Shown piece by piece: positions 27,057 to 43,770 of a stretch of DNA of 64,000 nt. Made by a program: the position numbers and the translations under genes. The DNA lies in IMG/VR virus record IMGVR_UViG_3300044631_002422, positions 1-64,000 of that record; one strand, 5' to 3'. Source of the DNA: a virus. The notes under the pieces were generated by a model. That model was given only the letters and a program-made list of their open reading frames with translations, was not told the DNA's origin and made no database searches. Numbering within the stretch: position 1 is the first letter of the stretch; each line of letters starts with the position of its first letter.

Positions 27057-27118
27057 CAATGGATGCCGATATAGTATAATAGAAGCATACAAAAGACAAT
27101 CACACAAAGGAAAAAAGA

Positions 27119-27307
27119 ATGAACGAAACAGAATTCAGCTTGACAATCAACGGAACCACTTTTGTAGCTACTTGGTTCGACAAAGAAGACGACCGCGTAG
27201 CCGAGTGGTACATCGACGCTAACGGTGAACGTGTTGGCAAGTTTCGCGGTTATCCAAGTAACGCAAAGCAAGTAGAAAATTTCATCCGGCATTTTCTTGC
27301 CAAGTAA
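27119..27307 (+). CDS. Small early protein, family B
   Basis: Own promoter and RBS; EWYIDANGE resembles ELWIDVNGE of 30189-30395. Confidence 0.75.
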   Translation: MNETEFSLTINGTTFVATWFDKEDDRVAEWYIDANGERVGKFRGYPSNAKQVENFIRHFLAK

Positions 27308-27538
27308 ACGATGAATACCGACGAAACGGTTGGTAGTGTACAGCTGTAAAATAGTGTACACGCGTATACTAGTCGGGCCGACCCAAATCGTCGTAAGTCC
27401 TAGAGCCACAAGGACTTATGGCAACAGGAAAAATTCTGAAAAAAATTTCTTTTTTTGTTCTAAAGCTATTGACAGTGTTTTGCCGATATGTATAATAAGG
27501 ACATGAGAAACAACAACACACAACAAAAGGAAACGAAA

Positions 27539-27673
27539 ATGAACACTGTCAAGATTGTCAAGGTTAACACTTGCTGGGGAGCTTACTGGTACACCGTAAA
27601 GGTTAACGGAATTGCCGTTGCGAATTGCGGTACATTGTCACACGCTCAAGAAATTTCTAAAAAATATTCCTAA
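27539..27673 (+). CDS. Small early protein, family A-like
   Basis: RBS-supported start; YTVKVNG..VANCGTL.HA shared with 28156-28332. Confidence 0.75.
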   Translation: MNTVKIVKVNTCWGAYWYTVKVNGIAVANCGTLSHAQEISKKYS

Positions 27674-27740
27674 AGCTATTGACAACCGATTGCCGATAAG
27701 TATAATAACAACATACGAAACACAACACAAGGAAACGACA

Positions 27741-27905
27741 ATGGACAGCTTTGACAACATTCAGTGCGACGAAATGCCATTCGAACCCAAGCAATCGGAC
27801 TGGCTGGAGTTTCAAATGTGGCTTGACAGCTTGCCGATTCGCGACGATGAAATCGGGGTTGAATACGGGCCTATCGAGTTTCCTGCCGATGACCTTCCCT
27901 TCTAA
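27741..27905 (+). CDS. Small acidic early protein, family C
   Basis: MDSF..Q.DE....P...DW.E...W.D shared with 33410-33601. Confidence 0.75.
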   Translation: MDSFDNIQCDEMPFEPKQSDWLEFQMWLDSLPIRDDEIGVEYGPIEFPADDLPF

Positions 27906-28155
27906 GGGCTTGACCCACAAGCCTCGCCCAAGTCGCGAGCATAGTTCGCCTCTCTATTCCAAAAGAGGCTTTTTATACACTAGTGTACAAGCGTACACCT
28001 GCCGGGCCGACCCAAATCGCCGTAAGTCCTAGAGCGCCAAGGGTTTACGTCAATTCAAAAAATTCCTAGAAAAATTTCTTTTTTTCTGCTCAAGTCTATT
28101 GACATTTCTAGCCGATACTGTATAATAGAAGCATAACACAACAAGGAAAATAAAA

Positions 28156-28332
28156 ATGACTATCTCAATTATCCCCCACGAAGCAACTAGCGGCTACGGC
28201 TTTCATTACACTGTAGAAATCGCCGGTTCGGTTGTTGCAATCTGCGGAACTCTGCATCATGCTCGCAAAGTTGCTGACGAAAAAAGAAAAGAATATCTCA
28301 AAAATTTGATTGATGGTATTGACAGTTTGTAA
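28156..28332 (+). CDS. Small early protein, family A-like (58 aa, absent from ORF track)
   Basis: Promoter 28099, AAGGAAA RBS, YTVEIAG..VAICGTLHHA. Confidence 0.75.
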   Translation: MTISIIPHEATSGYGFHYTVEIAGSVVAICGTLHHARKVADEKRKEYLKNLIDGIDSL

Positions 28333-28371
28333 CCGATAAGTATAATAAGAACACACACAAAGGAAAAAAAC

Positions 28372-28572
28372 ATGAAAACAGAACTACTCAAAAAAGCCGC
28401 TATTGCTCACCTTCCGCACGTTACTGATTACAAGTTGATTAACGAATTGCAACAACGAATTGTGGCTGATATTGTAGGTCATGAAAATGGTCGCGGTTGT
28501 TTGAGCAGTGAATACATTTCCAAACTGAACGCATTAAATGATGCAATCAACGCGGTTAAGGTTCACTGGTAA
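28372..28572 (+). CDS. Hypothetical early protein
   Basis: Promoter 28319 and RBS. Confidence 0.7.
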   Translation: MKTELLKKAAIAHLPHVTDYKLINELQQRIVADIVGHENGRGCLSSEYISKLNALNDAINAVKVHW

Positions 28573-28774
28573 TAATTTTACAATAATTATAAATACAACA
28601 CACACACACACACAAGGAAACGAAAAATGAAAATTTACATTGCAATCGAAGCGGATAAGGGTCTTGGGCAAACCATGATTCGAGCTTTTTATAACAAAGA
28701 AGAAGCTGAAAAATTCGCAAAAGAAAATCGTTATTGGATTGAAGAAGTTGAATTGTCGTAACGAAAGGAAAATT

Positions 28775-28954
28775 ATGTTCGACCGTTTTGCCGTTGCCGT
28801 TTTTTTAATGGATTATCATAGTGGCCAGTGGAGCCGAGGCTATCGCATTCTATCCAAAATGCGGCCCGAAAATTTCTCCTCTGATTTCTGTGAAGAAATG
28901 CGGAACACCGAATATTACGCTCACCTAGTTGCAAATTATGAAAACGAAGTATAA
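28775..28954 (+). CDS. Hypothetical early protein (DYHSGQWSRGY motif)
   Basis: AAGGAAA RBS before MFDRF. Confidence 0.65.
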   Translation: MFDRFAVAVFLMDYHSGQWSRGYRILSKMRPENFSSDFCEEMRNTEYYAHLVANYENEV

Positions 28955-28966
28955 GGAAAAATTATA

Positions 28967-29293
28967 ATGTTTACACGCGCCCAATATCTTGCCGGTGAAT
29001 GTTCGCACCAAGAATATTACGGTCAATTTGTTAATCAGTGGATTCTTACTTGCGTAAAGGGAAAATATGGAGTTAATCGATTAATTGAAGCTGAAAAGCT
29101 TGATATTAATTTTAACACTATCCCATTGTATTCATGGGACCAACTGAATATAATGTCGGCAGTTGACCAAGAACTTTGGGCTGCTGCTAATGGTTCACGA
29201 TATTACAGCCTATCTGATAATCTTTGCATCCAAAAACAAGCTGCTCGAATGATTGTAGAAAAATATCATAGTGAACAAAACGCCACTGTCTGA
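28967..29293 (+). CDS. Hypothetical early protein
   Basis: 108 aa with RBS. Confidence 0.75.
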   Translation: MFTRAQYLAGECSHQEYYGQFVNQWILTCVKGKYGVNRLIEAEKLDINFNTIPLYSWDQLNIMSAVDQELWAAANGSRYYSLSDNLCIQKQAARMIVEKYHSEQNATV

Positions 29294-29733
29294 CCCTATG
29301 TAAACAGACTGCGCAAAACAACCGCCCTAAGTGCTAGAGCCACAAGGACTTAGGTCAACGCGGGCCGCCGCCGTAAGTCGCAAGTCCTAGAGCCGCAAGG
29401 GTTTACGTCAATTCTCTAGAGCAATCGTCATGCCAATCGGCAAGTGAACAAAGATTGTACATGCCAATGAGCAGAATCTATGCAGCCAATGAGCAGTTTC
29501 TGTACACCCAGCAACGCTGCTTAAATTTTAGGCACGAAAACCGCGTGTTTTGAGCAGGAAAAAAATTCTGTGCTTAATTTTTGACTTGGCACGGGATTCG
29601 CTCTATATAGTGGTATGGAAAGTAAAAATCAAAAACAGAAACTTGCTGGGGAAAGAAAAGTTTCTGCTAAAGATTTAGCTTGACAATGACGATAAATATG
29701 GTATAATAGAGTAATAAGAATTAAGGAAAAAAA

Positions 29734-29934
29734 ATGAAAATTCTAAAAAGTAAAATCACAAAATTTGGTGCAAAAGTTAACCTAGTCGATGGTGGCGAAG
29801 GTACAAAACAATTCTTTGCACTGTCAAAACGTTATTGGATTTCTTATGGTGAATCTGCAAGTCCTCAAAATAATTGCAGAAATCGCTCAGATAATCTGAA
29901 ATATATCGAAAAAAAGTTTCAAGAAATTATCTAA
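29734..29934 (+). CDS. Hypothetical early protein
   Basis: Promoter 29680 and RBS. Confidence 0.65.
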   Translation: MKILKSKITKFGAKVNLVDGGEGTKQFFALSKRYWISYGESASPQNNCRNRSDNLKYIEKKFQEII

Positions 29935-29996
29935 AGCTCTTGACAACATCTTGTCGATACTGTATAATAGAATCACACAACACAAAGGAAACGAAA

Positions 29997-30134
29997 ATGA
30001 TTATCAACGGTTTTAAATTTTATGTTCGTCAACACGATACCGCCGACAAGTATTATGTCGCGATGAAGGGCGATGTGGTTCTCACTTCAAAAAGTTTGGA
30101 TTATCTTGTGAAAAAAGTCAAGAAACACGCTTGA
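29997..30134 (+). CDS. Small early protein
   Basis: Promoter 29940 and RBS; stop codon lies in the next -35 box. Confidence 0.65.
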   Translation: MIINGFKFYVRQHDTADKYYVAMKGDVVLTSKSLDYLVKKVKKHA

Positions 30135-30188
30135 CAACGCCGATAATTACTGTATAATAACAACACACAACACAACAAAGGAAAAAAT

Positions 30189-30395
30189 ATGATTGAAAAA
30201 TTTGATTACAATAGTTATGAAATCGCGACGTTTGTATATGACGGCGACCGCGAACGTTTGAAGGAATTGTGGATTGATGTCAACGGCGAATTTATTGGGG
30301 CGATTCGATTTCGCTCGATGAAACCATCGCAAGAACAAATCGAACAATACGTTGACGAATATCTTTCAGAAATGGCATTGGGATACGAAATATGA
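30189..30395 (+). CDS. Small early protein, family B
   Basis: Promoter 30131 and RBS; similar to 27119-27307. Confidence 0.75.
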   Translation: MIEKFDYNSYEIATFVYDGDRERLKELWIDVNGEFIGAIRFRSMKPSQEQIEQYVDEYLSEMALGYEI

Positions 30396-30685
30396 AAAAC
30401 GAAATTGAAAGCCTGGAAAGTATGTCGTATGATGAACTACTTCAGGCGGCTATTGCTCTGCTTGAAAATGCGGTCGAATTACGGGCCGAATTGGATAAAA
30501 TCAGGGGCATCATCAGATGAACAACTAGTGTACAAGTGTACAGTGGCCGGGCGGGCCGCAATCGACGTAAGTCCTAGAGCCACAAGGGTTTACGTCAACA
30601 AAAAAATTTTCCAGAAAATTTCCAGAATTGGGCTCAAGACTCTTGACAAATCCAGCCGATAGTGTATAATAGAGGCATAAGGAAA

Positions 30686-30856
30686 ATGAAAATGAAAAAC
30701 GAAATGACAATCACCGAAACCAAAACCAACAAGTCCCTAACCGGTTCTTTTTTCAAAGTTTACATTAACGGCCAACTGGTGGCAACTCGCACAACCCGCG
30801 AAGCCGCTGAAGAAGCTGGAAAAAAAATTCTGGAAAAAAAGGTCTACCGCTCTTGA
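30686..30856 (+). CDS. Small early protein, family A
   Basis: Paralog of 26892-27056; start 30686 or 30692. Confidence 0.75.
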   Translation: MKMKNEMTITETKTNKSLTGSFFKVYINGQLVATRTTREAAEEAGKKILEKKVYRS

Positions 30857-30923
30857 CAATGGCTGTCGGTTTGGTATAATCAGAGCATAAGTTAATCACA
30901 CAAACACAAAAGGAAAAAACACA

Positions 30924-31274
30924 ATGAACACTCAACAAGCTATCCGCGAATTTCAAGCCGCTATCGAATCCGTTATCGAAATCCCAAACAGTTGGTTGCC
31001 AACTGAATTGCATGATGACGTTCGTGGTGGTCGCACAATCGAACGTCTCAACGAACTACTCGACGAACGCGATGGTATCACCGAACATCGCAAGCTCAAA
31101 GCTCTCAAAGCTCGCAACATCGAAAAGTATGCCGCTACAGTTGCAGCCGGTCAAGAAATTGATTACAATATTGGCGAACGCGACGAATTGCAACTCTATC
31201 GTAATGAATGTGCAATGATTGAAGGAATGATTCACGCTGGTCATATCGACCGCGACGATTTGGAAGTAGAATAA
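30924..31274 (+). CDS. Hypothetical early protein
   Basis: 116 aa with promoter 30853 and RBS. Confidence 0.8.
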   Translation: MNTQQAIREFQAAIESVIEIPNSWLPTELHDDVRGGRTIERLNELLDERDGITEHRKLKALKARNIEKYAATVAAGQEIDYNIGERDELQLYRNECAMIEGMIHAGHIDRDDLEVE

Positions 31275-31471
31275 TGAACAGTAAAAAAATTGCAAAACGG
31301 CTTGAAGCAATGGGCTATAAGTTAACCCGCCGATTGAATTATTGGATTGTAAGTTGTGAGGAATTACCTTGGGATTGGGTATTTACTAACTTAAAAGAAG
31401 TTGAGCGTTGGACTCATATCGAAGAAACTGTTGGCGATAGATTTTGCTATCCCGAACCAGACGAGTGCTAA
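31274..31471 (+). CDS. Hypothetical protein
   Basis: TAATG coupling to the upstream gene. Confidence 0.65.
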   Translation: MNSKKIAKRLEAMGYKLTRRLNYWIVSCEELPWDWVFTNLKEVERWTHIEETVGDRFCYPEPDEC

Positions 31472-31783
31472 TGAAATTTTTTAAATCGTTTTTTATAATA
31501 TTGTGGATGGTTGGGTTTTTGTATTGTAGTATAATGGCTGTTACTTTTCTAATTCTGGATTTTATAAAATGGTTTTGAACACGCTATAGTGTACAACTGT
31601 ACAGGTCGGCGGGCGGCCCGGCGAGCCGTAAGTCCTAGAGCCTCAAGGGTTTACGTCTGTCAAGTAGGCAAAACCCATGCCACACAAAAAAGATTTTTTT
31701 TCTTATTTTTCTCTCAAGTATCTTGACAACTAGTGCCGATACTGTATAATGAGGAAGTCAATCACACACACAAGGAAAAAGTC

Positions 31784-32548
31784 ATGCTGAAATTCTCACC
31801 TGCTAACGTCAAGATTAAAGCCCTTAAACTCGTCGCCGCACTTGCCAAGTATTTGCCACGCGGTCGCCGTGTTTATAGTTTCGACTTGCTATCCGGTCAT
31901 ACTTGCCCATTCGCGAAATTATGCCGCAGTAAAGTAAAAATAATCGACGGCAAGCGTAAAATCTTTGATGGTCCGCATACTCAATTCCGCTGCTTTTCGG
32001 CAAGTCAAGAAGCGACATATACAAACGTTTATGAGCTACGCAAACACAATACGGAAATTCTGACCGCGATGAAAGACAACCAAGAAATTTTTGATATGTT
32101 AAATTCTTCTCTGCCCAAAAATGCTGGAGTTGTTCGCATTCACGTTGCGGGAGACTTTTTCAATCAAGATTATTTCGACGCTTGGGTGATGGTTGCGATG
32201 AACAATCCGAACGTTCTATTTTACGCTTATACAAAAAGCCTGCGTTATTGGGTCAGCCGCATTGCAGTTATTCCCGCGAATATGATTCTGACCGCAAGCG
32301 AAGGCGGAAGCGAAGATAATTTAATTCAAGAATATAATTTGCGGAAAGCTGTCGTTGTTTACAACGAACAATCAGCCGCTGAACTCGGATTGGAAATTGA
32401 CCACACCGACGAACATGCCGCCAACCCAGAAACGGCAAACCACGATTTTGCTCTTCTCATTCACGGTATTCAGCCAGCAGGCAGCGAAGCAGCCGCAGCG
32501 ATTCGCGAATTGAAAAGGAACGGAGTTGAATTTGCTTATTCACGATAA
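31784..32548 (+). CDS. Gene product 88 (GP88)-family protein
   Basis: FDLLSGHTCPFA..C, CFSA, VRIHVAGDFF, FYAYTKS. Confidence 0.8.
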   Translation: MLKFSPANVKIKALKLVAALAKYLPRGRRVYSFDLLSGHTCPFAKLCRSKVKIIDGKRKIFDGPHTQFRCFSASQEATYTNVYELRKHNTEILTAMKDNQEIFDMLNSSLPKNAGVVRIHVAGDFFNQDYFDAWVMVAMNNPNVLFYAYTKSLRYWVSRIAVIPANMILTASEGGSEDNLIQEYNLRKAVVVYNEQSAAELGLEIDHTDEHAANPETANHDFALLIHGIQPAGSEAAAAIRELKRNGVEFAYSR

Positions 32549-32611
32549 GGGGTAAAACGTGATTTATATTTTGATTGTAGTTATATCGACAATTTTATTT
32601 TTAGCACTATC

Positions 32612-32899
32612 ATGGAAAAATTCAGAATGAAAAGTTTGGTTATATTTTCTTACAAGCAGCCAGTGGATGGTTCGGTTATTCGTTGGGGAATTTTAGAACG
32701 CGAACGCGATACTAAAAAAGAACCTTTATCAATCAATTCTTTATGCGGACCTTATAGAAAACGCGATGCTAACTTTGAAAGGTCGCAACATCTTGACACT
32801 ATAAAAACTCGCAACGGAATAAAAACATTTTATCGCGAGCGACAAAATTGGAAAATCAAAATTCCATTTGTTGGAAGTATAGTATCGCGATTCGTATAG
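32612..32899 (+). CDS. Hypothetical protein
   Basis: 95-aa ORF. Confidence 0.55.
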   Translation: MEKFRMKSLVIFSYKQPVDGSVIRWGILERERDTKKEPLSINSLCGPYRKRDANFERSQHLDTIKTRNGIKTFYRERQNWKIKIPFVGSIVSRFV

Positions 32900-33100
32900 T
32901 GTACACGCGTACAGGGCGCGGGCCGTCCCGCCGCGTCGTAAGTCCTAGAGCCACAAGCACTTACGTCAGTCAAGTAGGCAAAGCGTGTGCCAGTGAAAAA
33001 AAATAAATTTCAAGAATCTTTTTTTATTTTGCTTCAGACTCTTGACAAACCTAGCCGATATTGTATAATAAGGAAGTCAATCACACAAGCGAGAAAAAAA

Positions 33101-33343
33101 ATGTACAAAGTAGAAATTGCCACTGTTTACGGCCCCTTTTGTGGTCAAGGCGGTTATGGTACTGAAACCTGCATCGGTTTCGACCGTAGCGTTAAGCGGG
33201 CTTTTGCCAAGGCTCGCGGCCAAGGCAGTCACCGCTACGACCGTAGCCAGATTGTAACCGGCTCGCGTGGTGGCGGCGTTCCCGTTCTGGGTATGGTTCG
33301 GATTTCTCACAACGGAAAAATTATTTCCGAAATTTGGGATTGA
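33101..33343 (+). CDS. Hypothetical Gly/Arg-rich early protein
   Basis: Start placed downstream of promoter 33042. Confidence 0.65.
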   Translation: MYKVEIATVYGPFCGQGGYGTETCIGFDRSVKRAFAKARGQGSHRYDRSQIVTGSRGGGVPVLGMVRISHNGKIISEIWD

Positions 33344-33409
33344 CCCCTTGACAGTTGTTTTTTCTTTGGTATAATCAGCGTATCAGTCACACACTTTGGA
33401 GAATTGAAA

Positions 33410-33601
33410 ATGGACAGCTTCAGCACCAACCAACATTCCGACGAATTGGACTATCAACCCACCGCTGCCGATTGGAACGAATACCAAGAGTGGTATGACG
33501 GCCAAGAGGCTTGCTACCCAGAGGGTGATGACCTCCTCGACAGCGACCCCATCGACCTTTACGGTGGCGATGACTCGCACTACTGGCAATACGACGAATA
33601 G
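33410..33601 (+). CDS. Small acidic early protein, family C
   Basis: GGAG RBS; paralog of 27741-27905; very D/E-rich. Confidence 0.75.
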   Translation: MDSFSTNQHSDELDYQPTAADWNEYQEWYDGQEACYPEGDDLLDSDPIDLYGGDDSHYWQYDE

Positions 33602-34051
33602 GGCTTGACCCGCAAATCCCGCCCAAGTCGCGGGTATGGTATGGGGTCCATTCAAAAACCCCCTATATTCGGGAAAAGAGGTAGGCGAATTAACGTCAAG
33701 GATTTGAGAAGCCTTAGCGGTTCTGTCTTCAGCGGAAAACGGCCTCGAAGTACCATATTTCATTTTGACAGGTGAACACCTGTACACATAGTGTCTATGC
33801 TAAACAAAACCGATTTACTTTTTTTTCTTTGGCCGAAATTTAAGGTAGTCTTACTCAAACTAATCTGAATTGCCCCAGCATTTGGGCCAAAGTTTGCCCG
33901 GCCCGCGCCGCCCTAAGTCCTAGAGCCCCAAGGAGTTACAACGATTGAAAAAAAACTTTTTTTCTGCTAAAGTTCCTTGACATTGTGTGCCGATATAGTA
34001 TAATAGAGAAAGTGTGCCGATATAGTATAATAGAGAAAAAAGAGAAACGAA

Positions 34052-34339
34052 ATGAAAGTTGAAGTAACGCCCGCAAAGCCTGATTTCCAGCCCGTCACCC
34101 TGAGTATCACCATTGAGTCGTTTGCCGAACTCGCTGTGCTTTTTGCTCGATTCAATTGCCCAGTTGCGATTATTAAACAACATGGCTTTGGTGATGGCCC
34201 AATGAACACCAGACTCGCAAGAGCAGCAGATTTTAGCATCGAAGATATCGATGAAGGCGGCAGAATTTTCGACCATATTTCAGACATAGCTAGAGGTTAT
34301 TATTACGCGATGTATAATGTGGGAAAAGGAGAACGATAA
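34052..34339 (+). CDS. Hypothetical early protein
   Basis: Follows promoter 33977. Confidence 0.7.
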   Translation: MKVEVTPAKPDFQPVTLSITIESFAELAVLFARFNCPVAIIKQHGFGDGPMNTRLARAADFSIEDIDEGGRIFDHISDIARGYYYAMYNVGKGER

Positions 34340-34545
34340 TGCTACAAATGACTAAGAATGAAATTATTTGCGAAATTTTGGAACAAACAACGCCCGATGA
34401 GCTAATGTTCGACCTTGAAAATACCGATATTGAATGGTATACTGACTTGGTGTGCGATGTTGTGTTTATGCGTACTGTAAGATATCAAGATGTTTGCGAC
34501 GCTTTAGTGTGGTTTGCTTCACAAGAATTGGAGGCTTTAAATTAG
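34339..34545 (+). CDS. Hypothetical acidic protein
   Basis: TAATG coupling and RBS. Confidence 0.65.
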   Translation: MLQMTKNEIICEILEQTTPDELMFDLENTDIEWYTDLVCDVVFMRTVRYQDVCDALVWFASQELEALN

Positions 34546-34727
34546 ACAAAGACTTTTATTTTGGGCAGGAACAATTACTGTTTGGTGTTGTTTTATTTTA
34601 CTCATGAGCTTAATTTTAGTGGGGATATACAACGGCTAAAAAATTTCTTAAGTTTTGACTTGACATAGACGATAAGTATGTTAGAATGATATTGTAAATG
34701 ATGTTTCACTTTTTTGGAGAATGTGCT

Positions 34728-34931
34728 ATGATGGTTGATTTGTACGGCAAGCGTAACGAGCGTAAGGTTTCTTTCCTGTATCCTGTTGGTGGCAAGAAGA
34801 ATGTTCTTCGGGCCGTAAATGGTGTAAAGGTTCGCAGTTATACTGGACCGAATGGGCGTGGTATTACCGTCCGCGAAGACAGCGGAATCATGAAGTCCTT
34901 TTCGGTCAGCAAGTGCGTAGCTGGTCTTTAA
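34728..34931 (+). CDS. Small basic beta-barrel-like protein
   Basis: GGAG RBS upstream of MMVDLYG. Confidence 0.6.
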   Translation: MMVDLYGKRNERKVSFLYPVGGKKNVLRAVNGVKVRSYTGPNGRGITVREDSGIMKSFSVSKCVAGL

Positions 34932-34944
34932 TTGCTACGCTTGC

Positions 34945-35187
34945 AACGGCGACGGTCAGCAGACAATCGCTAAGGTGCGGAACAAACCAACAAAATCCGC
35001 ACGACTCGATTGGGCGAGTATAAATAGGATGATAGGCCCAATGCGGCGGCATTTGCCGCGAATCGGCATTAAAGTTTAGCCCTCCTGTCGTCAGACGGCA
35101 GCAAACTAAACGAGCTAGCGTGTCGCCCCAACAGTTCTTCGCCGTTCTGCTGCTGGTGGATAAAACGAACGGCGAGCTTTTTCTTTT
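34945..35187 (+). ncRNA. Candidate structured non-coding RNA
   Basis: Intergenic and GC-rich; closing helix GGCGAC/GTCGCC, several internal hairpins, possible pseudoknot, terminator-like 3' hairpin. Confidence 0.5.
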
Positions 35188-35199
35188 AGGAAATGAAAC

Positions 35200-35382
35200 G
35201 TGAAACTGATTGTATTGGATTTTCTCATCGGCATATGTCATATCTTTACCGTAACTAAGGAGTTATGCGAAAGCGAAGATAATATCGTTGATTTCCTAAT
35301 GGAAAAAGATTTTAATCTTGACAACATTCAGTATATGTATGGCGACATACCGATAATAGGCGACATGAAAGTTGTGTTGTAA
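35200..35382 (+). CDS. Hypothetical protein
   Basis: AGGA RBS, GTG start. Confidence 0.5.
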   Translation: MKLIVLDFLIGICHIFTVTKELCESEDNIVDFLMEKDFNLDNIQYMYGDIPIIGDMKVVL

Positions 35383-35569
35383 TGCAACTACTTGACAAAC
35401 TCTTGCGATATGCTAAAATGATTCGTGAAGACCGTGCCACTGTTTGTTTGTGGTGCGGTAGACATTTAGTACTGCTTTGGGACGTACTTTTTTGGAGTAG
35501 CATTGCGGCTGGCGGTTGGCTGTTTGGTTACTTGATTTGTATTACGTTTAACATTGGGAGTTTTGCGCA

Positions 35570-35815
35570 GTGAAAACTTTTCTTGAATTTAGCGGATGGA
35601 TAGAGCTTGACGAAAAAACACAAATGTGTTATTATGGAAACGGCGACCCAAAAAGAATAACGCTAAAGGAATGGCAACAGCTTCCTAGGCAAGAGCAAAG
35701 TAATTATTGGATAGAACAAGAAGATTTTGACGTACTGTACCGCTATGGCGTAGATAGTGATTTTTTTGATTGGCGTTTAGTTTTGGGAGAAAAATATGAC
35801 GAAGAAGCTGTTTAG
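35570..35815 (+). CDS. Hypothetical protein
   Basis: GGAG RBS, GTG start. Confidence 0.6.
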   Translation: MKTFLEFSGWIELDEKTQMCYYGNGDPKRITLKEWQQLPRQEQSNYWIEQEDFDVLYRYGVDSDFFDWRLVLGEKYDEEAV

Positions 35816-35986
35816 TTTGGGGCAAACTTTTGTTGTGAATGGTGTCGAATGGACTGGCCGCGAGTATCGACTTGATGCCGCGTTTGAAGGATGGACGATT
35901 GTTGCCGTAAACGGCAGTAATCAAGTGGCACAATTTAGTCTTGCAGACGTTGAAAAAGCACTGGGGGTATGATATACTAGCGGTAT

Positions 35987-36055
35987 GGGCCAGCCGCTGG
36001 TTGCGGACTTGACTCTTATAAGGTCGATGATGGGATTCGATTTCCTGCTGGCCTA
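35987..36055 (+). tRNA. tRNA-Ile(UAU)-like, atypical
   Basis: Acceptor GGGCCAG/CTGGCCT, anticodon loop CT-TAT-AA, TTCGATT loop; weak D arm. Confidence 0.55.
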
Positions 36056-36105
36056 TTTGACTTTAGCAAAATGCATGGTAGAATGATTGAAAAGGAGAAC
36101 GTAAC

Positions 36106-36375
36106 GTGGCTAAACGCAAAAAGAAACTTCCGGTTGCGAGTGGTGAAATGTTGGATTTTGTGGTGACTTTAGAGCGTCCCGAAACTGGTACAATTGTGCG
36201 GTATATCGAGCAGTTCAGCCCGTTTAATCCCGCGACTGGACAGCTATATACTCATCGAGAGTTTAGCGAACAACTTTTGCCATACGTCCGAGAAGTTGGC
36301 AAGAGTTTTGAAAATTGGAATATGTTTGTTGTTCTTGCCACAAACGAAGAAATCGAAGAACTAAAGAGTATATAA
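36106..36375 (+). CDS. Hypothetical protein
   Basis: AAGGAG RBS. Confidence 0.7.
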   Translation: MAKRKKKLPVASGEMLDFVVTLERPETGTIVRYIEQFSPFNPATGQLYTHREFSEQLLPYVREVGKSFENWNMFVVLATNEEIEELKSI

Positions 36376-36584
36376 TGGGCATACTTATTGGGCTAGTTCT
36401 TGCATTTATTTTTGTGCAGAAAATATACCATCTCAACGGAAACCGCTAGGTCGGCGGGCCGACCCGCCGCGTCGTAAGTCCTTGTGGCCCTAGCACTTAC
36501 GTCAACAAAAAAATTTCTTAATTTTTTCTCAAGTCGGTTGACATTCTGTGTCGATAATGTATAATAGGAAGCAAGGAGAACGCA

Positions 36585-36830
36585 ATGTATAAAAATTTTA
36601 CGATTGAAATTAACTGCTGGCGATGCCACGAACCATACCGCGTCAAGCCTAACTGTGAAGGTTTTCTTCAGTGGATTAGGGGAGAAGCTTTGATTCAGGA
36701 CGCAATGCCAGAACTTACTGCTGACCAACGCGAACTGATTATGAGTGGAACTTGCGACCGCTGTTGGAACGCTATGTTTCCATACAACGAAATTCTCTCG
36801 GCTGAAGTTCTTGACAAGGACGGTCGATAA
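36585..36830 (+). CDS. Zinc-finger (CxxC...CxxC) early protein
   Basis: CWRC and CDRC; LIQDAMPELTADQRELIMSG; own promoter. Confidence 0.75.
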   Translation: MYKNFTIEINCWRCHEPYRVKPNCEGFLQWIRGEALIQDAMPELTADQRELIMSGTCDRCWNAMFPYNEILSAEVLDKDGR

Positions 36831-36878
36831 TGTATACTAAGGAAGTAAGTTAAAGTCACACATTTTGGAGATTGAATT

Positions 36879-37277
36879 ATGGGTTTGGACCAGTATGCTT
36901 TCGCACGTAAGGGTGAACCTGAAAAGTATATCGATAAAAATTGGCTTGGCAAGGACCAAGAATTTATTCGCTATCCAGAAAAAAACGAAATCGCCTATTG
37001 GCGAAAGCACCCCAATTTGCAAGGTTGGATGGAAAATCTATACCGCGAAAAGGGTGGTGACGCTGAATCTTTCAACTGCGTTGATGTTGAATTGACGCTC
37101 GAAGATTTGAACCGTTTAGAGCGTGATATTAATAAAGGTGCTTTACCAAGCACGACCGGCTTTTTCTTTGGTTCAGATTCCGACGAATACTACAAAGAAC
37201 AAGACGAGAAATTTATCGACGCGGCTCGCGATTCAATTATTAACGGTTACACTGTTGTTTATAATTCGTGGTGGTAA
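36879..37277 (+). CDS. Conserved phage hypothetical protein (MGLDQY...YWRKH...GFFFG family)
   Basis: Motif set recognisable from many phage genomes. Confidence 0.8.
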   Translation: MGLDQYAFARKGEPEKYIDKNWLGKDQEFIRYPEKNEIAYWRKHPNLQGWMENLYREKGGDAESFNCVDVELTLEDLNRLERDINKGALPSTTGFFFGSDSDEYYKEQDEKFIDAARDSIINGYTVVYNSWW

Positions 37278-37308
37278 CTAACGTTAAAGAAATAACAAGG
37301 AGAAAGTT

Positions 37309-37617
37309 ATGAGCAAATACTTTACAGCAGCAGAAGCAAAGAAATTGGCCGGAAAATCAGTTGAAGAAAAAGTTGAGCTTTTGTGTGAATCAATCAAGAA
37401 AAACGCCAGCGAACGTAAACGTTCATTAATAACTGGTTGGGAGCACAAAGAAGACCGAGATTTGTGGATTGATGGTGGATACAGCCGAACAGAAGATTGG
37501 GAAAAAGCAAAAAAGATTCTTGAGGCACTTGGTTATAAAGTTACATTTTATTGTCAAGAGCCCCCATCCGTGTGGGCAATCCCAATCGTTGCTATGTATA
37601 CCATAATTGAGTGGTAA
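37309..37617 (+). CDS. Hypothetical protein
   Basis: AAGGAG RBS. Confidence 0.7.
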   Translation: MSKYFTAAEAKKLAGKSVEEKVELLCESIKKNASERKRSLITGWEHKEDRDLWIDGGYSRTEDWEKAKKILEALGYKVTFYCQEPPSVWAIPIVAMYTIIEW

Positions 37618-37645
37618 CTGACAAACTGCTTCAAAGGAACGTAAC

Positions 37646-37834
37646 GTGAAAATTTGGTGTGTAGCGTGTTTTTACGAAGTCCAGCGTGATGCCCATTGGC
37701 GTTTGGAACTCAGCAATATTTATTTGTTTAGTTCTGCTCAACTGGCAAATAAGTTTGTTAGGAGTAATTATTACCAAAAAATGAACTACGACGCATTTGA
37801 AACTTATGAATCAGAGGTTGACAATGCGGTTTAG
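37646..37834 (+). CDS. Hypothetical protein
   Basis: AAGGA RBS, GTG start. Confidence 0.55.
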   Translation: MKIWCVACFYEVQRDAHWRLELSNIYLFSSAQLANKFVRSNYYQKMNYDAFETYESEVDNAV

Positions 37835-37979
37835 TGTGGTATACTTGCGTTATGAAGATTAAAATCAACAAAGTGGCAACGGGTCACAATCCGCCAGTAT
37901 TTCGCTGCGGCAAGTGGCAGGATAAGCGTAAACGGCGTGAGCGTACTCGCGCAGCACAAAGATTAAAGTGGAGTCGGGA

Positions 37980-38240
37980 ATGAGCGTAAAGACTCTTGTT
38001 CGTTGTCGCGGATTTACTGAAATTTTTAGCGATAACAAATACACATATATTTATCACAATGGTAATATGGGTGACACAGAAAGTCATATTCGCAAAAATT
38101 TTGATAGTATGTATTTTGATGGAGCGTACAACAGGCTTGAAAGGCAAGCAAATGTTATTAAAGATGGCTCGCCTGATTACAGTTTTGTTTTACGTGTTCC
38201 TACAAATGTATTTAACGCTTTGATAAAGGAGAACGAATGA
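37980..38240 (+). CDS. Hypothetical protein
   Basis: GGAG RBS; ATGA overlap with the next gene. Confidence 0.6.
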   Translation: MSVKTLVRCRGFTEIFSDNKYTYIYHNGNMGDTESHIRKNFDSMYFDGAYNRLERQANVIKDGSPDYSFVLRVPTNVFNALIKENE

Positions 38241-38605
38241 TTAAGATTAAAGGTTTGCCGGAAGGCTATGACATTGTGAGGATTGGCAGGCCAGAGGCTT
38301 GCGAATTATTTATAGGTGGCACTGGGATGGTGGAAAGGTCAAGCGGTGATTTGATGGCCGCTTGCTACCTCATCGTCCGCAAAATCGAGCGGCCAAAGCA
38401 ATACAGGCCGTTTGCCAGTGCTGAGGAGTTTAAGCCGCATCGGGATAGGTGGACAAGGCGAATCGCATACGACCCACAAGGAAATGATATTTACCCGCCA
38501 ACACGATACAGCGATTTAGGTTATCACGGGTTCAAATGGCAATGGTGCTTTGAGAACTTTTCATTTGACGATGGTACCCCATTTGGCGTGGAGGTGAGTG
38601 AATGA
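38237..38605 (+). CDS. Hypothetical protein, family D
   Basis: G.P.GY..VRIGRP...RKIE.PK.YRPFA...G.PFGVE shared with 61583-61951. Confidence 0.8.
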   Translation: MIKIKGLPEGYDIVRIGRPEACELFIGGTGMVERSSGDLMAACYLIVRKIERPKQYRPFASAEEFKPHRDRWTRRIAYDPQGNDIYPPTRYSDLGYHGFKWQWCFENFSFDDGTPFGVEVSE

Positions 38606-38744
38606 AGGTCTTTGTTGTAATTTGTTTTAAGGTAATTGGCCGCGAACATATTTTTGTAAATGCCGCCGTTTTCAAAAACTCAAATGACGCATCTACGTTT
38701 GGTGCAAATTATGACGATTCAATAGTAATCGAAAGGACTGTATC

Positions 38745-39167
38745 TTGAACGCCAAAGTTTATATTTACTGGAATTTACATAAGCGTTGTTTCAGTGCAAA
38801 ACGAAACGGCAAAGTTTTCGCCCACTTCCGAAATGCCAGCATTTTGAATCCTGAGTTTCGAGTGAGTGCTGCTGGATGCCGCCGTGTTCGTCGCGATGGT
38901 CGCAAAAATGTTCATGCCAACATTGTATGCGAATTGGAGAATTTTACAATTCATTCAGACAGCAGAATCGCCCCTGTTAGTGACGCTACTGCTGAGTATG
39001 CTTACTATAATCCGTATCTTTACGAAACTTTTGTTGACAACGAAGGTGATGCATTGTATAATGCACAAAGTGCCGAGTTAACCACTTATGAGCATATGCT
39101 CAATTACTATAAAAATTTGAAAGAAAGACAACCCATTATTTACATTACGAAAGAAGCAAATGACTAA
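38745..39167 (+). CDS. Conserved phage hypothetical protein (YWNLHK...RKNVHA...YNPY)
   Basis: Widespread phage motif pattern. Confidence 0.75.
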   Translation: MNAKVYIYWNLHKRCFSAKRNGKVFAHFRNASILNPEFRVSAAGCRRVRRDGRKNVHANIVCELENFTIHSDSRIAPVSDATAEYAYYNPYLYETFVDNEGDALYNAQSAELTTYEHMLNYYKNLKERQPIIYITKEAND

Positions 39168-39354
39168 CGACATTGCAAAAAGATTAGAAAACGACATTGC
39201 AAAAAGATTAGAAAAACTCCAAGATGACTTGAACCATCTGGCCGAGAAACTCTCTGGAGAAGGTCCATCTAGCTATACCGAACGAAAAGAGCGAGCAAAA
39301 GAACGACAAGCTTTTGTTAGTGAAATAGAAAGAATGCAAAATGAAAGTGAATAA
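39160..39354 (+). CDS. Small coiled-coil protein
   Basis: Contains an in-frame 24-bp tandem duplication (NDIAKRLE x2). Confidence 0.6.
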   Translation: MTNDIAKRLENDIAKRLEKLQDDLNHLAEKLSGEGPSSYTERKERAKERQAFVSEIERMQNESE

Positions 39355-39550
39355 GCACAACCGCGACCTAATTATTGCCGAATATATCGACCGTACCATC
39401 GATGGAATGGATATTAAAGGACTTATTGAATATGTTCGTGGCGGAATAGAAGCCGACCTTAAACATTATTCCGATACAGAATTGGAATATGAAATTCTTG
39501 ACCAATACGATGATTTTCCTTGGTACGATTTTGATTATGCAGATGAATAA
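39341..39550 (+). CDS. Small acidic protein
   Basis: Overlaps the upstream stop. Confidence 0.6.
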   Translation: MKVNKHNRDLIIAEYIDRTIDGMDIKGLIEYVRGGIEADLKHYSDTELEYEILDQYDDFPWYDFDYADE

Positions 39551-39622
39551 AGTATAAGGTTTTGGCGGCCCTGTTGGTAGTTTTGTTATTGAATATAAGG
39601 AACCTTCATTAGAGAATAAATA

Positions 39623-39832
39623 ATGACCGAAAACCCACTACAACTAGCAACTAAAAATTGGATAGAAGCAGTCCAGAAGTATTATGAGAATACTCGTAGT
39701 AATGAATTGACCCAAATTCATATGAGGGGTTATTTCAGCGGTTGGAGCGAACGCGAGATTCTGGAATTTGCGAATAAATTGGCTAAAAATGAACAGGACT
39801 ATCCTTTGTATAGAGAGAACGAGAATAAATAG
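39623..39832 (+). CDS. Hypothetical protein
   Basis: 69-aa ORF. Confidence 0.6.
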   Translation: MTENPLQLATKNWIEAVQKYYENTRSNELTQIHMRGYFSGWSEREILEFANKLAKNEQDYPLYRENENK

Positions 39833-40056
39833 GCCCGCCCGCCGAGCCCTAAGTCCTTGTGCCGCTAGGACTTACGTCAATCAAGCAAAGCAACTTTTGT
39901 GCCATTCCCGCTCGGGAAAATTCTAGGCAAACCGCAAAAGTTATTCCCGCTCGGGACAGAAAACTTTTTTCTTTTTTTTCTCTCAAGCCACTTGACCTTC
40001 GCGGTCGATAAAGTATAATGAGAGAGTAAGTCACACACAATGTTTAGGAGTTAGTT

Positions 40057-40908
40057 ATGCCTCGCCGTGTTGTTAGTTGTCAGTTGCCGCCCGTCAAAAC
40101 GTGCAAGAATACCAATTGTGCTAGTGTTGCTATTAGCTACGATGGTTTCTGCAAGTCGCACGCTCCAAGTCGTCGCATTAAGAGCTATAATTCGCGTCCG
40201 CGATGTAGTTCACGATGGGCGAATCCTATCGGTATCGAACTCGAAATGATTCATCCAGAATCCGCAAGCCGTTTGGCACAAGTTGCCCGCTTTGCATGTA
40301 CCGATGCCAGTTTACCCTATGGTGGTGCGGAAATCAAGCTGGTGCAAGATGCCAGTAAGATTACCAATATCGCCGCCGATACTGCTCAACGTGCTGGCCT
40401 TGCTGGTGCAAAGGTTAATCGTAGCTGCGGTTTTCATGTTCATATGGGATTGCCCAATGGTGTCAGCGTTGGATTAGAGCGTCGAAGCGATGCGAACTGG
40501 TCAAGCTGTAACGCCCGTTATCGTTTGTGGGCATTGGCAACAAACTTTCAAGAATACTTTTTTGATATTGTTCCCAAAACTCGCCGCACGAACCACTATT
40601 GCTCGCCGTTGACAAGCGTAACCAATAGTTTACATTCTCACTATGCTTGGCTATCTGTTTCGCACCGTGTTCCTACGGTCGAACTACGGATTCATAGCGG
40701 AACGGTCAATCCGTGGAAAGTCAAAGGTTGGGTCGAAGTCGCTGTGCGTTTGCGTGAAATGGTAAACGCCGCGATTCTCGGAACCCAAGGTTGGGATAAT
40801 CTTCCTAGCAAGAAGTTTGTAGATTATATGGAACCGGGAACACTTGGTTCCAAGTATTTGCTCGCTCGCGAATGTGCTGGTGGCAAACTGGTAAATTTTG
40901 GATTCTAA
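40057..40908 (+). CDS. Putative amidoligase (COOH-NH2 ligase, Amidoligase_2)
   Basis: IGIELE, DASL, AEI, VNRSCGFHVH, TVELRIHSGT. Confidence 0.85.
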   Translation: MPRRVVSCQLPPVKTCKNTNCASVAISYDGFCKSHAPSRRIKSYNSRPRCSSRWANPIGIELEMIHPESASRLAQVARFACTDASLPYGGAEIKLVQDASKITNIAADTAQRAGLAGAKVNRSCGFHVHMGLPNGVSVGLERRSDANWSSCNARYRLWALATNFQEYFFDIVPKTRRTNHYCSPLTSVTNSLHSHYAWLSVSHRVPTVELRIHSGTVNPWKVKGWVEVAVRLREMVNAAILGTQGWDNLPSKKFVDYMEPGTLGSKYLLARECAGGKLVNFGF

Positions 40909-40959
40909 TTATCGTTCGATAGAACGTACACACACTCACTTTTTTTGGAGAATTTTATT

Positions 40960-41826
40960 ATGTGTCGATTGGCTTATATTCCGGGCAACTGCAAAGTAAA
41001 CCGTACTGATTTGGTGGACCTTTTGCATATGCTGCAAAAGTCGTTTGGTGGCGATGGTAACGGATTCGTTGCCGTTGGTCCCAATGGTGAGGAGTTTAGC
41101 GAGAAGGGTGTCAAGTTAGACAACGATGCTATCGTTATCAAAACTTGGAAACTTATCAAAAAGGGTTGGTCGGTTTACTATCATACTCGCAAGATTAGCG
41201 TAGGCTGGAGTAGCGACAAGCAATGCCATCCGCACCGTATCAACGGTGACAAGTTCAAGGGTTGGCTGTGCCACAATGGAACGTGGAATGATGGAGTACC
41301 GCTTGCCAATTATCTTAACTGTGGTAGCGATACCGCTGCTCTTGCTCGATGTATCGGCAAGTTTGGTATCGAGGGAGCAGAAAAACGCAATCTGTTTCCC
41401 AAGTCGGGCGTGTTTCTTATCTACGGTAGCGAGAATGGCGAATCGCCTATTCATCGCGTAGTCAAGAAATCGGGCGACTTGCAATACTGCCCCAAGACTG
41501 GTATTTGGGCCAGTGAGTTCGAAAAGGATTGGCCGTACTGGTCGCAGGTTTATACCGCAACTGTTGGCAAGCACTTGCTTTGCAAACCAGCCCCACAATA
41601 TATTTCGCCTGCTCGCGGTAATGGTGGCAAGTTTGTGAGTCGCAAGAATAGCCATCCTGATATTATTGATTCAGGAATTCCAGCACCGTGGGACGATGAT
41701 GACCGAACCGTTGTTGATTCGCGTCGCTCGTTGTCGCAACGATTGTGGCCGCAAGACCCTACTGAGTACGAACCAGAGCCAGATTGGGAATATCGTGGCG
41801 GATACCCACGACGCGATTTGAGTTAG
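40960..41826 (+). CDS. Class II (Ntn) glutamine amidotransferase
   Basis: Starts MCRL (Cys2 nucleophile); DGNG, HTR, CHPH, HNG and SDT motifs. Confidence 0.85.
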   Translation: MCRLAYIPGNCKVNRTDLVDLLHMLQKSFGGDGNGFVAVGPNGEEFSEKGVKLDNDAIVIKTWKLIKKGWSVYYHTRKISVGWSSDKQCHPHRINGDKFKGWLCHNGTWNDGVPLANYLNCGSDTAALARCIGKFGIEGAEKRNLFPKSGVFLIYGSENGESPIHRVVKKSGDLQYCPKTGIWASEFEKDWPYWSQVYTATVGKHLLCKPAPQYISPARGNGGKFVSRKNSHPDIIDSGIPAPWDDDDRTVVDSRRSLSQRLWPQDPTEYEPEPDWEYRGGYPRRDLS

Positions 41827-42189
41827 TGTGTGTGTGTGTTTGTAGGTGAGTTTTATCTTTTAACTTTAGGAGTATTTTATGAAGAAGTGTACTGGTTGTG
41901 GCCGTCCAATTGAAACTGTTGTTATTCGTCAATGTCCAAAATGCATCAACAATCGCGCTGGATTATAAGTGTGTGTGTGTGTGTGTGATGCCCAACAGCT
42001 TGGGGGACGCAAGTCCCCCGGCTGTACGGGTGTACACTACGCGGGCCGCCCCGCGACGCCCTAAGTCCTTGTGGCTCTAAGACTTACGTCAATCCGCTAG
42101 GCAAACCTCATGCCAAACAAAAACAAAAATCTTTTTTCTTTTTTCCTCAAGATACTTGACAAGCAATGCCGATATAGTATAATAAGGAA

Positions 42190-42316
42190 GTGAGCAGTGG
42201 CCTGACAAGCAGGTACGACTCTCGACAGTTAAGGACCGGGAAGCTCCGGGCTGAACCGTTTCGTAGCGGTTACTGTTGATTGCTGCTGTTGGCGGTGTTC
42301 GATTCCCGCCGCTCAC
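42190..42316 (+). ncRNA. tRNA-like small RNA with its own promoter
   Basis: Begins 6 nt after the TATAAT of promoter 42156; closing stem GTGAGC/GCTCAC; T-arm GGCGG..TTCGATT..CCGCC; T-run follows. Confidence 0.6.
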
Positions 42317-42406
42317 ATTTTTTAAAAATTCCGCTTGACATTCGTTGAGCGTAACGTATAATTCAAGAGTAACAAGTTCAGTTTTTTTTCACGAAGGGTT
42401 TTTACC

Positions 42407-43327
42407 ATGTCTACTGTTTCCCGTTCTAATGTTTCTGCCAACGAAATCTCGGCTCGCGTTGCCGCTGCTTTCAACTTCACTGTTGACAAGTTCCCGCTTG
42501 CTGGCCCAGATGGTCTTCGCACTCCGTGGTACGGTATGTTCCGCTCTGACAACAACGAAGTTGTTGGTAACGGTTCTGTAACCTCGCGGTACTGTCCACA
42601 CCAAACCGAAGACGTTCTCGCACTGGTGGATGCCGCCAGCGAAGCGTTTGAAGGTGTGGCGAGTGTTGACACCTACTTCCGCGATGGGCATTATGTCGCC
42701 ATCGAACCAACTCGCGAACAACGTTATGCGATTTTCGGCACTGCCGACAACATCTTTCCGCGTGTCGTGATTCGTGCGGGTTACGATGGCAAGGCGTTCA
42801 ACGCCGCGATGGGTTATTACCGCGATGCTTGCCGCAATCTGGCAATCATGCGACAAGTTAGCGGAACCACCGTTTCCATCCGCCACACTAGCGGACTGCG
42901 AAGCCGCATGGATTCGCTGATTCAAAGCTTTACGAGTCTTCGCGATTCGTGGCAAATGCTGGCCGCAACTGCGGTTCAGCTTGAATCAACTCGCGTGAAT
43001 CTTGCGGACTTCCTTCGCGAAGTTTACGGCGAACCCGAAACCGACAGCGGTCGTGCTGCGACTATCCATCGCAATCGTACCGAAACGATTTTCAATCGTG
43101 TGATGGATGAACGTAGCCGCACTGGTCGCGGTGCTATGCCAGCCGATTTCCGCGTCAGCGGTTGGGAAGCGTTCAACGCTGTGCAGGGATTCGTTCAGCA
43201 TGAATCAACTCGCAAGAGTTCGGCTCGCGGTGCTGCCGCAACCGGATTTGGTCGAATCATCGCCGCCGCTAACGATGCTGCGGTTCAACGTGCCGAACGT
43301 GCTGCGATGAATCTGCTCGCGGTTTAA
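42407..43327 (+). CDS. DUF932 domain protein
   Basis: R.D....G..V...Y.P.Q, YDG, YR.ACRN, IRHTS, WEAFNAVQ. Confidence 0.8.
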   Translation: MSTVSRSNVSANEISARVAAAFNFTVDKFPLAGPDGLRTPWYGMFRSDNNEVVGNGSVTSRYCPHQTEDVLALVDAASEAFEGVASVDTYFRDGHYVAIEPTREQRYAIFGTADNIFPRVVIRAGYDGKAFNAAMGYYRDACRNLAIMRQVSGTTVSIRHTSGLRSRMDSLIQSFTSLRDSWQMLAATAVQLESTRVNLADFLREVYGEPETDSGRAATIHRNRTETIFNRVMDERSRTGRGAMPADFRVSGWEAFNAVQGFVQHESTRKSSARGAAATGFGRIIAAANDAAVQRAERAAMNLLAV

Positions 43328-43353
43328 TCTTTCGTGTGTTTCCTTTCGTGTGA

Positions 43354-43388
43354 GCCAGTGGCGGCATTTTGCCGCCGCTGGTTTTTTT
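43354..43388 (+). terminator. Intrinsic terminator after DUF932 gene
   Basis: GCCAGTGGCGGC-ATTTT-GCCGCCGCTGGT followed by a T-run. Confidence 0.85.
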
Positions 43389-43770
43389 AGATAGGTGTAC
43401 AATGGTATACATACTAATCGTCATTGTGGCGTGTATTATATTTTTGATGCTGGAATTATAATTCCGGTTATACTCTGGCCGCCTAGCGCGGCCTTTTTTA
43501 TTATACTTTCGGTGAGTTGACGTAAGTCCTTGGGGCTCTAGGAGTTACGACGCGCGGGGCCGGGCGGCTTACTGTACATCTGTACACCTGTACGAATTTT
43601 CACTATTGACATTCTGTCTCTGCTAAACTATACTGATTTGCTGGGAACTCTTGGCCGAAATTTGTCTTATCCAAAGTATTAAGATTTGCCCACAACATTT
43701 GGTCTGAATTCATATTTTGCTAAAGTGTGGCTTGACATTAGTCGATATGTATTGTATGATGTTATTGTAT

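Follow-up and report, generated by a model that had tools for sequence, protein, structure and literature searches.

We analyzed a 64,000-nt stretch (the window) of the virus record IMGVR_UViG_3300044631_002422, an uncultured phage sequence from lake-water metagenomes. The complete phage genome has 148,186 bp, with ends that overlap by 127 bp, and the window covers its first 64 kb. The early region of this phage contains 12 copies of a 29-bp palindrome, in which two 10-bp arms flank a 9-bp core. From the sequences, it is probable (about 78%) that these palindromes are bound by a protein of the IHF/HU family, and we also favor, with less confidence, the combination of such binding with a role at promoters or as a boundary. 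Our best reading of the array is a promoter architecture built by the host's integration host factor (IHF), with homologous shuffling of genes like that at the promoter early stem-loop (PeSL) cassettes of T4-type phages.

Twelve palindromes in the early region

The initial annotation listed 12 copies of the palindrome, and all 12 starts are exact; shuffled sequence gave no matches. It also reported no copies outside of 27.3-43.6 kb. We scanned the whole genome with a position weight matrix: the 12 copies scored 43.6-51 bits and the next-best place scored 2.9 bits, so the array is indeed restricted to 27.4-43.5 kb. The arms have 1-3 mismatches per 10 pairs. There are seven different cores among the 12 sites, and five copies share one core. 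The elements, with the distance from the center of the palindrome to the -35 box (position in parentheses), are:

27392..27420, + strand: palindrome 1, with GTAC boxes at 27356-27367; 63 bp to -35 (27469)
28021..28049, + strand: palindrome 2, with GTAC-N4-GTAC at 27985-27996; 64 bp to -35 (28099)
29326..29407, + strand: palindromes 3 and 4 (29326 and 29379), a doublet with 53-bp spacing and a GC linker, the usual form in related phages
30566..30594, + strand: palindrome 5, with GTAC-N4-GTAC at 30530-30541; 63 bp to -35 (30643)
31627..31655, + strand: palindrome 6, with GTAC-N4-GTAC at 31591-31602; 82 bp to -35 (31723)
32937..32965, + strand: palindrome 7, with GTAC-N4-GTAC at 32901-32912; 91 bp to -35 (33042)
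33912..33940, + strand: palindrome 8, without GTAC boxes; 51 bp to -35 (33977)
36473..36501: palindrome 9, core flipped relative to its flanks; 51 bp to -35 (36538)
39848..39876: palindrome 10, core flipped; 130 bp to -35 (39992)
42060..42088: palindrome 11, core flipped, with GTAC-N4-GTAC at 42024-42035; 82 bp to -35 (42156)
43521..43593, - strand: palindrome 12 with its GC box and three GTAC boxes, all inverted; it ends the early region and has the same orientation in the relative G002

The usual order that had been proposed for these elements (GTAC boxes, GC-rich box, palindrome, TCAA, A/T tract, promoter) holds in part. TCAA directly follows the palindrome in 8 of 12 copies, and GTAC-N4-GTAC boxes are found in 7 of 12, at a constant -36/-28 relative to the palindrome, but the next promoter after the 29326/29379 doublet is about 290 bp away.

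The core is on the + strand in copies 1-8. In the copies at 36473, 39848, and 42060, the core is reversed and the direction of the GC box and the downstream tract is unchanged; at 43521, the entire element is inverted. In the relative G001 (70-80% identical), the cores of the sites orthologous to 39848 and 42060 point the other way between unchanged flanks, and in three elements the GC box and the palindrome are both reversed. The orientation of the element appears to be neutral.

The palindromes resemble symmetric IHF sites

We gathered related loci with a looser pattern and a search for DUF932, which gave about 100 viral loci. Most of these hold arrays of the 29-mer, usually as doublets with a GC-rich linker and a spacing of 41-42, 50, or 52-53 bp. 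In four relatives, the array is likewise limited to one region. An exact viral search with the phage's CTAG core gave no matches, and neither did a search for the palindrome element among 50,697 phage records.

A profile of about 630 sites from the approximately 100 viral loci reads CG-TAA-GTCS-TTG-AT-N-AT-CAA-SGAC-TTA-CG, with near-invariant AA, T, A, and TT. The family pattern is TAA-N4-TTG-N5-CAA-N4-TTA, which, read from the center on either strand, is WATCAA-N4-TTR. The consensus for IHF is WATCAR-N4-TTR (PMC8942017, PMC8421141); we left PMC6907758 out of this consensus as its Table 2 seems to swap the IHF and H-NS motifs. Among the half-sites of the family, 99.6% have TTR, 75% have CAA, and 30% have the full WATCAR-N4-TTR. 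In this phage, all 24 half-sites match C(A/T)A-N4-TTR, and one arm has TAG. T11 and A19 are near-invariant, and the TT/AA steps are 9 bp apart. IHF kinks DNA at two steps that are 9 bp apart (PMC8421141), and the 9-bp core of the initial annotation corresponds to the interval between those two kinks.

We considered whether the elements might act as single-stranded hairpins, either as terminators or attenuators, as in PeSLs, or as structures in single-stranded DNA. It is possible to draw each element as a set of three small hairpins, one fold of the six tested had z = -3.0, and flips of the core in place would be possible for hairpin loops. However, the other five folds were like those of shuffled sequences, and the arms lack covariation: across 641 sites, the paired fraction was 0.758, versus 0.755 if right arms were shuffled within each locus. 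We read the arms as two independent half-sites on double-stranded DNA and not as a stem. Also, there is no U-tract after the elements on the transcribed strand, and no Rfam family matched at the elements. Overall, we consider hairpins very unlikely.

A candidate binding protein in the host

The sole basis for assigning a host is one gene in the window:

60007..61044, + strand: DUF1559 gene with an N-methylation motif

We take this combination to be a marker of Planctomycetota, so it points to a host in that phylum. Each of 15 Planctomycetia genomes encodes exactly one DNABII protein with the E-x-R motif of IHF-beta (RIELRNFG), and otherwise divergent HU-like proteins. We did not see an alpha-type IHF subunit in any of these 15 genomes, and the phage itself has no DNABII gene. 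The best solved match of the host's IHF-like protein is IHF. In IHF, the residues Arg42, Glu44, and Arg46 read TTR. All three residues are specific to the beta subunit (bioRxiv 2024.06.24.600358), and Arg46 inserts into the minor groove of the lateral DNA. Because there is one beta-type subunit and no alpha type, a homodimer that reads TTR on both sides is predicted, and with it a symmetric site.

We propose that the host's IHF-like DNA-bending protein binds each 29-mer as double-stranded DNA. In Planctomycetia this protein would be a beta-type homodimer, so that both arms would carry the CAA-N4-TTR half, which E. coli's IHF recognizes on just one side. The arms would be separated by the 9-bp stretch between the kinks, and the direction of this stretch would be irrelevant.

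The 29-mer is also present in bacterial chromosomes from at least seven phyla, including Planctomycetota, Verrucomicrobiota, Fibrobacter, Treponema, Bacteroidetes, and Proteobacteria. At three chromosomal loci (L054, L073, and L062), it lies 4-14 bp 3' of a tRNA or tmRNA gene, and L062 is beside a tyrosine integrase. The 29-mer is also in the end of a DDE insertion sequence with six copies in one Verrucomicrobiae genome (L053, L068, L071, L072, L074, and L076), where a perfect symmetric site is directly upstream of the transposase promoter. The 3' flanks of tRNA or tmRNA genes and the ends of insertion sequences are typical places for IHF. One copy in Planctomycetota lies 57 bp upstream of the -12 element of a sigma-54 box, the classical position for IHF. 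Four genomes that were chosen for holding the 29-mer have 5-42 copies, versus 0-2 for the control. Contigs L056, L059, and L065, which were binned as Rhodobacteraceae and Enterobacterales, have doublet arrays of the phage type and are probably misbinned phage DNA.

The center of the site varies with the host group. A T precedes CAA in 16% of chromosomal half-sites from Planctomycetota and in 6% of those from the phage's relatives, versus 64% in other chromosomes and 74-84% in other groups of phages.

Might the palindrome be the operator of some other dimeric protein, encoded by the host or the phage, with an incidental likeness to IHF sites? The N4 and flanking positions (GTCS and CG) are conserved beyond what the E. 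coli consensus demands, the phage's site has a GC-rich center, and many of the phage's open reading frames are unannotated. On the other hand, the motif occurs in the chromosomes of at least seven phyla at tRNA or att sites and in the ends of insertion sequences, the invariant positions coincide with the A/T positions in the IHF consensus, and the center tracks the host group. We think that another operator is unlikely.

The palindromes lie upstream of early promoters

Structural genes are on the - strand until about 26 kb, and small genes run on the + strand from 26.8 kb. The early region has about 31 matches to sigma70-type promoters on the + strand and 2 on the - strand. The region also contains repeated units, each of which precedes one to a few small genes:

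26823..42400, + strand: about two dozen promoter/ribosome-binding site (RBS) units, with TTGACA, a 16-bp spacer that often contains GCCGAT, GTATAAT, and then ACACA-AAGGAAA

The 16-bp spacer with conserved GCCGAT and the G before TATAAT (for instance at 27469, 28099, and 31723) are seen in both this phage and its relatives; these spacer features may reflect the host's primary sigma factor. At 33985-34038, there is an exact 27-bp tandem duplication of one promoter's spacer and -10 region, which is not in the variant from run X19. The promoter after palindrome 11 heads a non-coding, tRNA-like stretch (42190-42317) that was not called by ARAGORN or Rfam.

In this genome, the distances from the center of the palindrome to the -35 box are 51, 51, 63, 63, 64, 82, 82, 91, and 130 bp, and the centers are at about -85 to -165 relative to the early promoters. 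Across 71 viral sites, which are not independent of each other, these distances show a periodicity of about 10.3 bp (Rayleigh p ~1e-5). Our results support the suggestion in the initial annotation that the array binds protein and is linked to early transcription.

IHF acts at lambda pL and Mu Pe with centers near -80 to -90. In our preferred reading, the bound IHF-like protein would bend the DNA into a U-turn ahead of certain strong early promoters of the sigma70 type. The bend may bring a distal module, which is a second IHF-type site in most relatives and the GTAC-N4-GTAC boxes, as putative sites of another protein, here, towards RNA polymerase. Alternatively, the bend might protect the A/T-rich promoter against silencing and against read-through from upstream; IHF can counter silencing of the H-NS type (PMC6524683).

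The GTAC boxes were found only in this phage and its closest relative (G001/G002), and they sit where related phages have the upstream palindrome. A relic left arm remains at 42008, 52 bp ahead of the palindrome at 42060, and a lake contig has a palindrome arm at the 53-bp position there. The GTAC-N4-GTAC boxes took the place of the second palindrome in this lineage. We also tried GTAC-N4-GTAC as a LexA-type box of the host, but there was just 1 match in four host genomes, versus 2 for the control, so we rejected this idea.

An IHF-like protein might bind these sites for a mainly structural purpose: to fold the DNA that enters first or pull it in, to insulate supercoiled units, or to drain the host's IHF from processes that depend on it (e.g., the uptake of CRISPR spacers). 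Consistent with this, the array is limited to the early region in this phage and to one region in the four relatives, 12 strong symmetric sites exceed the needs of most promoters, the doublets are rigid, and the last element is inverted as a boundary might be, in G002 as well. However, the near-helical distances to the -35 boxes would be needless for a sponge or a ratchet, and 12 sites per genome are few compared to the thousands of IHF dimers in an E. coli cell (PMC6907758). A mainly structural role seems slightly less plausible still than another operator.

Five of the palindromes are accompanied by sigma-54-type boxes. These are the genome's only five perfect sigma-54 boxes (TGGCAY-N5-TTGC), and all of them are on the - strand, face the palindrome, and are 27-28 bp from its center:

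29421..29435, - strand: sigma-54-type box, with the C of its -12 element 28 bp from the palindrome center
31668..31682, - strand: sigma-54-type box, 27 bp from the center
32978..32992, - strand: sigma-54-type box, 27 bp from the center
39890..39904, - strand: sigma-54-type box, 28 bp from the center
42101..42115, - strand: sigma-54-type box, 27 bp from the center

In the relatives, the distances of sigma-54 boxes peak at 26-32 bp from the palindrome center. The palindrome is downstream of each box (at about +2 to +30), unlike the classical upstream position of IHF. The phage has no gene for a sigma-54 activator (PF00158). A near-consensus sigma-54 box on the + strand, at 29587-29601, lies in the long spacer after the doublet.

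We can imagine a more elaborate scenario, which we consider improbable. The early region, as the first DNA to enter (and possibly a long terminal repeat), might hold an array of high-affinity sites that load both homodimers of the host's IHF and sigma-54 polymerase that lacks an activator. The resulting nucleoprotein fold might insulate the promoters of the region, protect the entering DNA or help to pull it in, and keep IHF away from host defense, and this chromatin-like use of host factors might be shared by a large clade of phages that infect the Planctomycetes-Verrucomicrobia-Chlamydiae (PVC) group.

Genes are shuffled at promoter repeats, not at palindromes

The initial annotation compared the palindromes to loxP and dif and proposed that a site-specific recombinase uses them as crossover sites to shuffle gene cassettes. 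Such sites also have inverted arms around an asymmetric core, five of the copies share the same core, and gene order is heavily shuffled relative to G001. The annotation saw no recombinase gene in the window, and this extends to the complete phage genome, in which we found neither a tyrosine recombinase (PF00589) nor a serine recombinase (PF00239). PF00589 is also absent from the relatives G002-G005 (two of which are complete), and Pfam scans of 52 further phage open reading frames gave no integrase among the families listed. The host might still supply an enzyme of the XerCD type.

The cores do not behave like crossover sites either. They are diverse: 14 sites in G003 have 14 different cores, and 10 sites in G005 have 10. 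They point both ways, yet all of the genes and 31 of 33 promoter matches in the region are on the + strand. Also, the core flips without its flanks, so these flips could not be produced by a single crossover.

If the palindromes were crossover sites, then breaks in synteny should map to them, as the annotation suggested. Relative to G001, 12 of 14 junctions with a palindrome are broken, but so are 16 of 22 junctions without one (the paralogues 26892 and 30692 may be swapped in our map of G001, in which case one or two of these non-palindrome breaks become kept junctions). All five multi-gene blocks to the left of 31.6 kb are split, with their genes scattered over different blocks of G001.

Variant contigs from the lake show where joints occur. 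These include a 226-nt insertion at 27679-27724 with a duplicated promoter on its flanks; a deletion (28755-29962) that takes out the whole doublet and leaves two promoters fused; a replacement that begins at 33085, inside a promoter/RBS unit; and a variant that lacks the 27-bp promoter duplication at 33985. Eight of 17 joint ends are in promoter/RBS units, which make up about 10% of the region, and none of the 17 is in a palindrome (the smallest distance is 53 bp), with the caveat that joints with sides of just 21-30 letters may be misplaced repeats. The annotation had looked to junctions that join two sites as a sign of recombination, and no joint crosses over within a core in the assembled lake contigs, which drop rare variants. 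In run X1, 32968 is joined to 30560 in one low-depth contig, with 16 additional letters in between, but this reads as a 54-bp doublet from a relative and not as a core crossover.

Taken together, the loxP/dif-like role is largely refuted, and we give it hardly any credence. Both the shuffling of cassettes and the paralogous mini-genes that the annotation pointed to are real, but the shuffling unit is a promoter plus its gene and not a block bounded by palindromes. The promoter/RBS repeats are likely the homology for this shuffling. We propose that homologous recombination between the numerous promoter repeats of 60-150 bp alters the gene order, in the fashion of PeSLs and probably with the aid of the phage's RecA. 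The phage encodes a RecA (genome positions 87423-89525) with a LAGLIDADG-bearing insertion that is probably an intein, two SSBs, and an endonuclease VII, in keeping with homologous exchange of the PeSL type (PMC2839356).

Points against binding by IHF

Several observations weigh against a promoter architecture built by the host's IHF. First, the phage's half-sites fit just 5-7 of the 9 positions of the E. coli consensus: WAT is lost, and one arm has CTA instead of CAA. Second, the host's IHF-like proteins score below the NCBIfam cut-offs for IHF. Third, among 151 unselected Planctomycetota genomes, the strict motif gave 21 sites in 15 genomes, versus 13 sites for the reversed control. Near-perfect sites are uncommon in Planctomycetota, and the support from chromosomes is modest. 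Fourth, if only this genome is considered, helical phasing is borderline (p = 0.054), and 50 bp, the doublet spacing seen most often across the loci, is not an integer number of turns. Fifth, the palindrome is missing at most early promoters, as the roughly 31 promoter matches on the + strand imply that most promoter-gene units lack one, and the last element points away from the genes. Finally, our reading does not account for the sigma-54 boxes or the GTAC boxes.

Other features of the phage

The phage is distant from cultured phages. In the phage collection, the closest cultured matches to its terminase are from Bacillus phages and are just 24-28% identical, so there is no cultured relative there. 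Annotated genes in the early region include:

31784..32548, + strand: GP88-family gene (PF17338)
40057..41826, + strand: amidoligase-like gene and its downstream partner, a pair that is retained in G001
42407..43327, + strand: DUF932 gene (PF06067), the final gene ahead of the inverted palindrome element

A protein that matches sigma-70 region 2 is encoded at 25145-25690 (- strand), adjoining the early region, and is possibly a late sigma factor of the phage. A Pistol ribozyme at 35004-35065 (+ strand; 47.7 bits, above the Rfam gathering score) is in a gene-free part of the early region. In all four runs, the summed depth of contigs over 26828-43427, which is not a measure of copy number, is about 1.5-1.9 times that of the flanks. 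This hints only weakly, if at all, at a long terminal repeat.

Implications and comparison to known systems

If our reading is correct, then lytic phages of Planctomycetes and related hosts repeat a site for the host's DNA-bending protein as a building block of early promoters. The sites would also be a natural many-copy substrate for asking whether single-subunit IHF-like proteins outside of the Proteobacteria form homodimers and bind specific sequences, a question that was left open for Acidobacteria and Bacteroidetes (bioRxiv 2024.06.24.600358). Our analysis also disposes of the claim of a new phage recombinase system, which was tempting but lacked support. Both components, IHF sites and repeated promoters of the PeSL type, are known kinds of elements, but an array of symmetric sites that combines them was not found in the literature that we searched.

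The resemblance to loxP and dif is limited to inverted arms around an asymmetric spacer. In the phage, the spacer is 9 bp and variable, the orientation is free, there is no recombinase gene, and no crossovers were seen.

The phage's putative IHF sites share the CAA-N4-TTR half-site, the 9 bp between TT/AA steps, and an extent of about 30-35 bp with the IHF sites of E. coli, and both kinds are located at att sites, the ends of insertion sequences, and promoters. E. coli's sites consist of an A-tract and one consensus half, whereas the phage's sites are two-fold symmetric. Also, the phage's sites have a GC-rich center in the lineage from Planctomycetes and are repeated 12 times in the early region of a lytic phage.

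In the leader of type I-F CRISPR arrays, two IHF sites and inverted repeats fold about 150 bp of DNA (bioRxiv 2023.05.26.542337). Paired IHF sites, fixed spacing, and further motifs are common to both systems, but the phage has no Cas1-2 or CRISPR repeat, its partner motifs are different, and its sites are in a promoter context.

In the PeSL cassettes of T4-type phages, the stem-loop is a proven terminator that lies near or within the promoter (PMC2839356, PMC4122927). As in this phage, a strong sigma70 promoter with A/T-rich upstream DNA and an RBS is repeated between small and variable early genes, and genes are gained, lost, and reshuffled at the repeats. In contrast, the phage's dyad lies 51-130 bp upstream, shows no selection for pairing, and reads as a protein site.

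A similar order of elements is seen at the promoter of the Caulobacter gene transfer agent, where the box of the activator GafY is at -123 to -113 and acts through an IHF site that lies between this box and a sigma70 promoter (PMC11150451). In both cases, a distal box is followed by an IHF-type site and then by the -35 and -10 boxes. The gene transfer agent has one such promoter, while the phage has a dozen, its core promoters already match the consensus, and the distal module in its family is usually a second IHF-type site.

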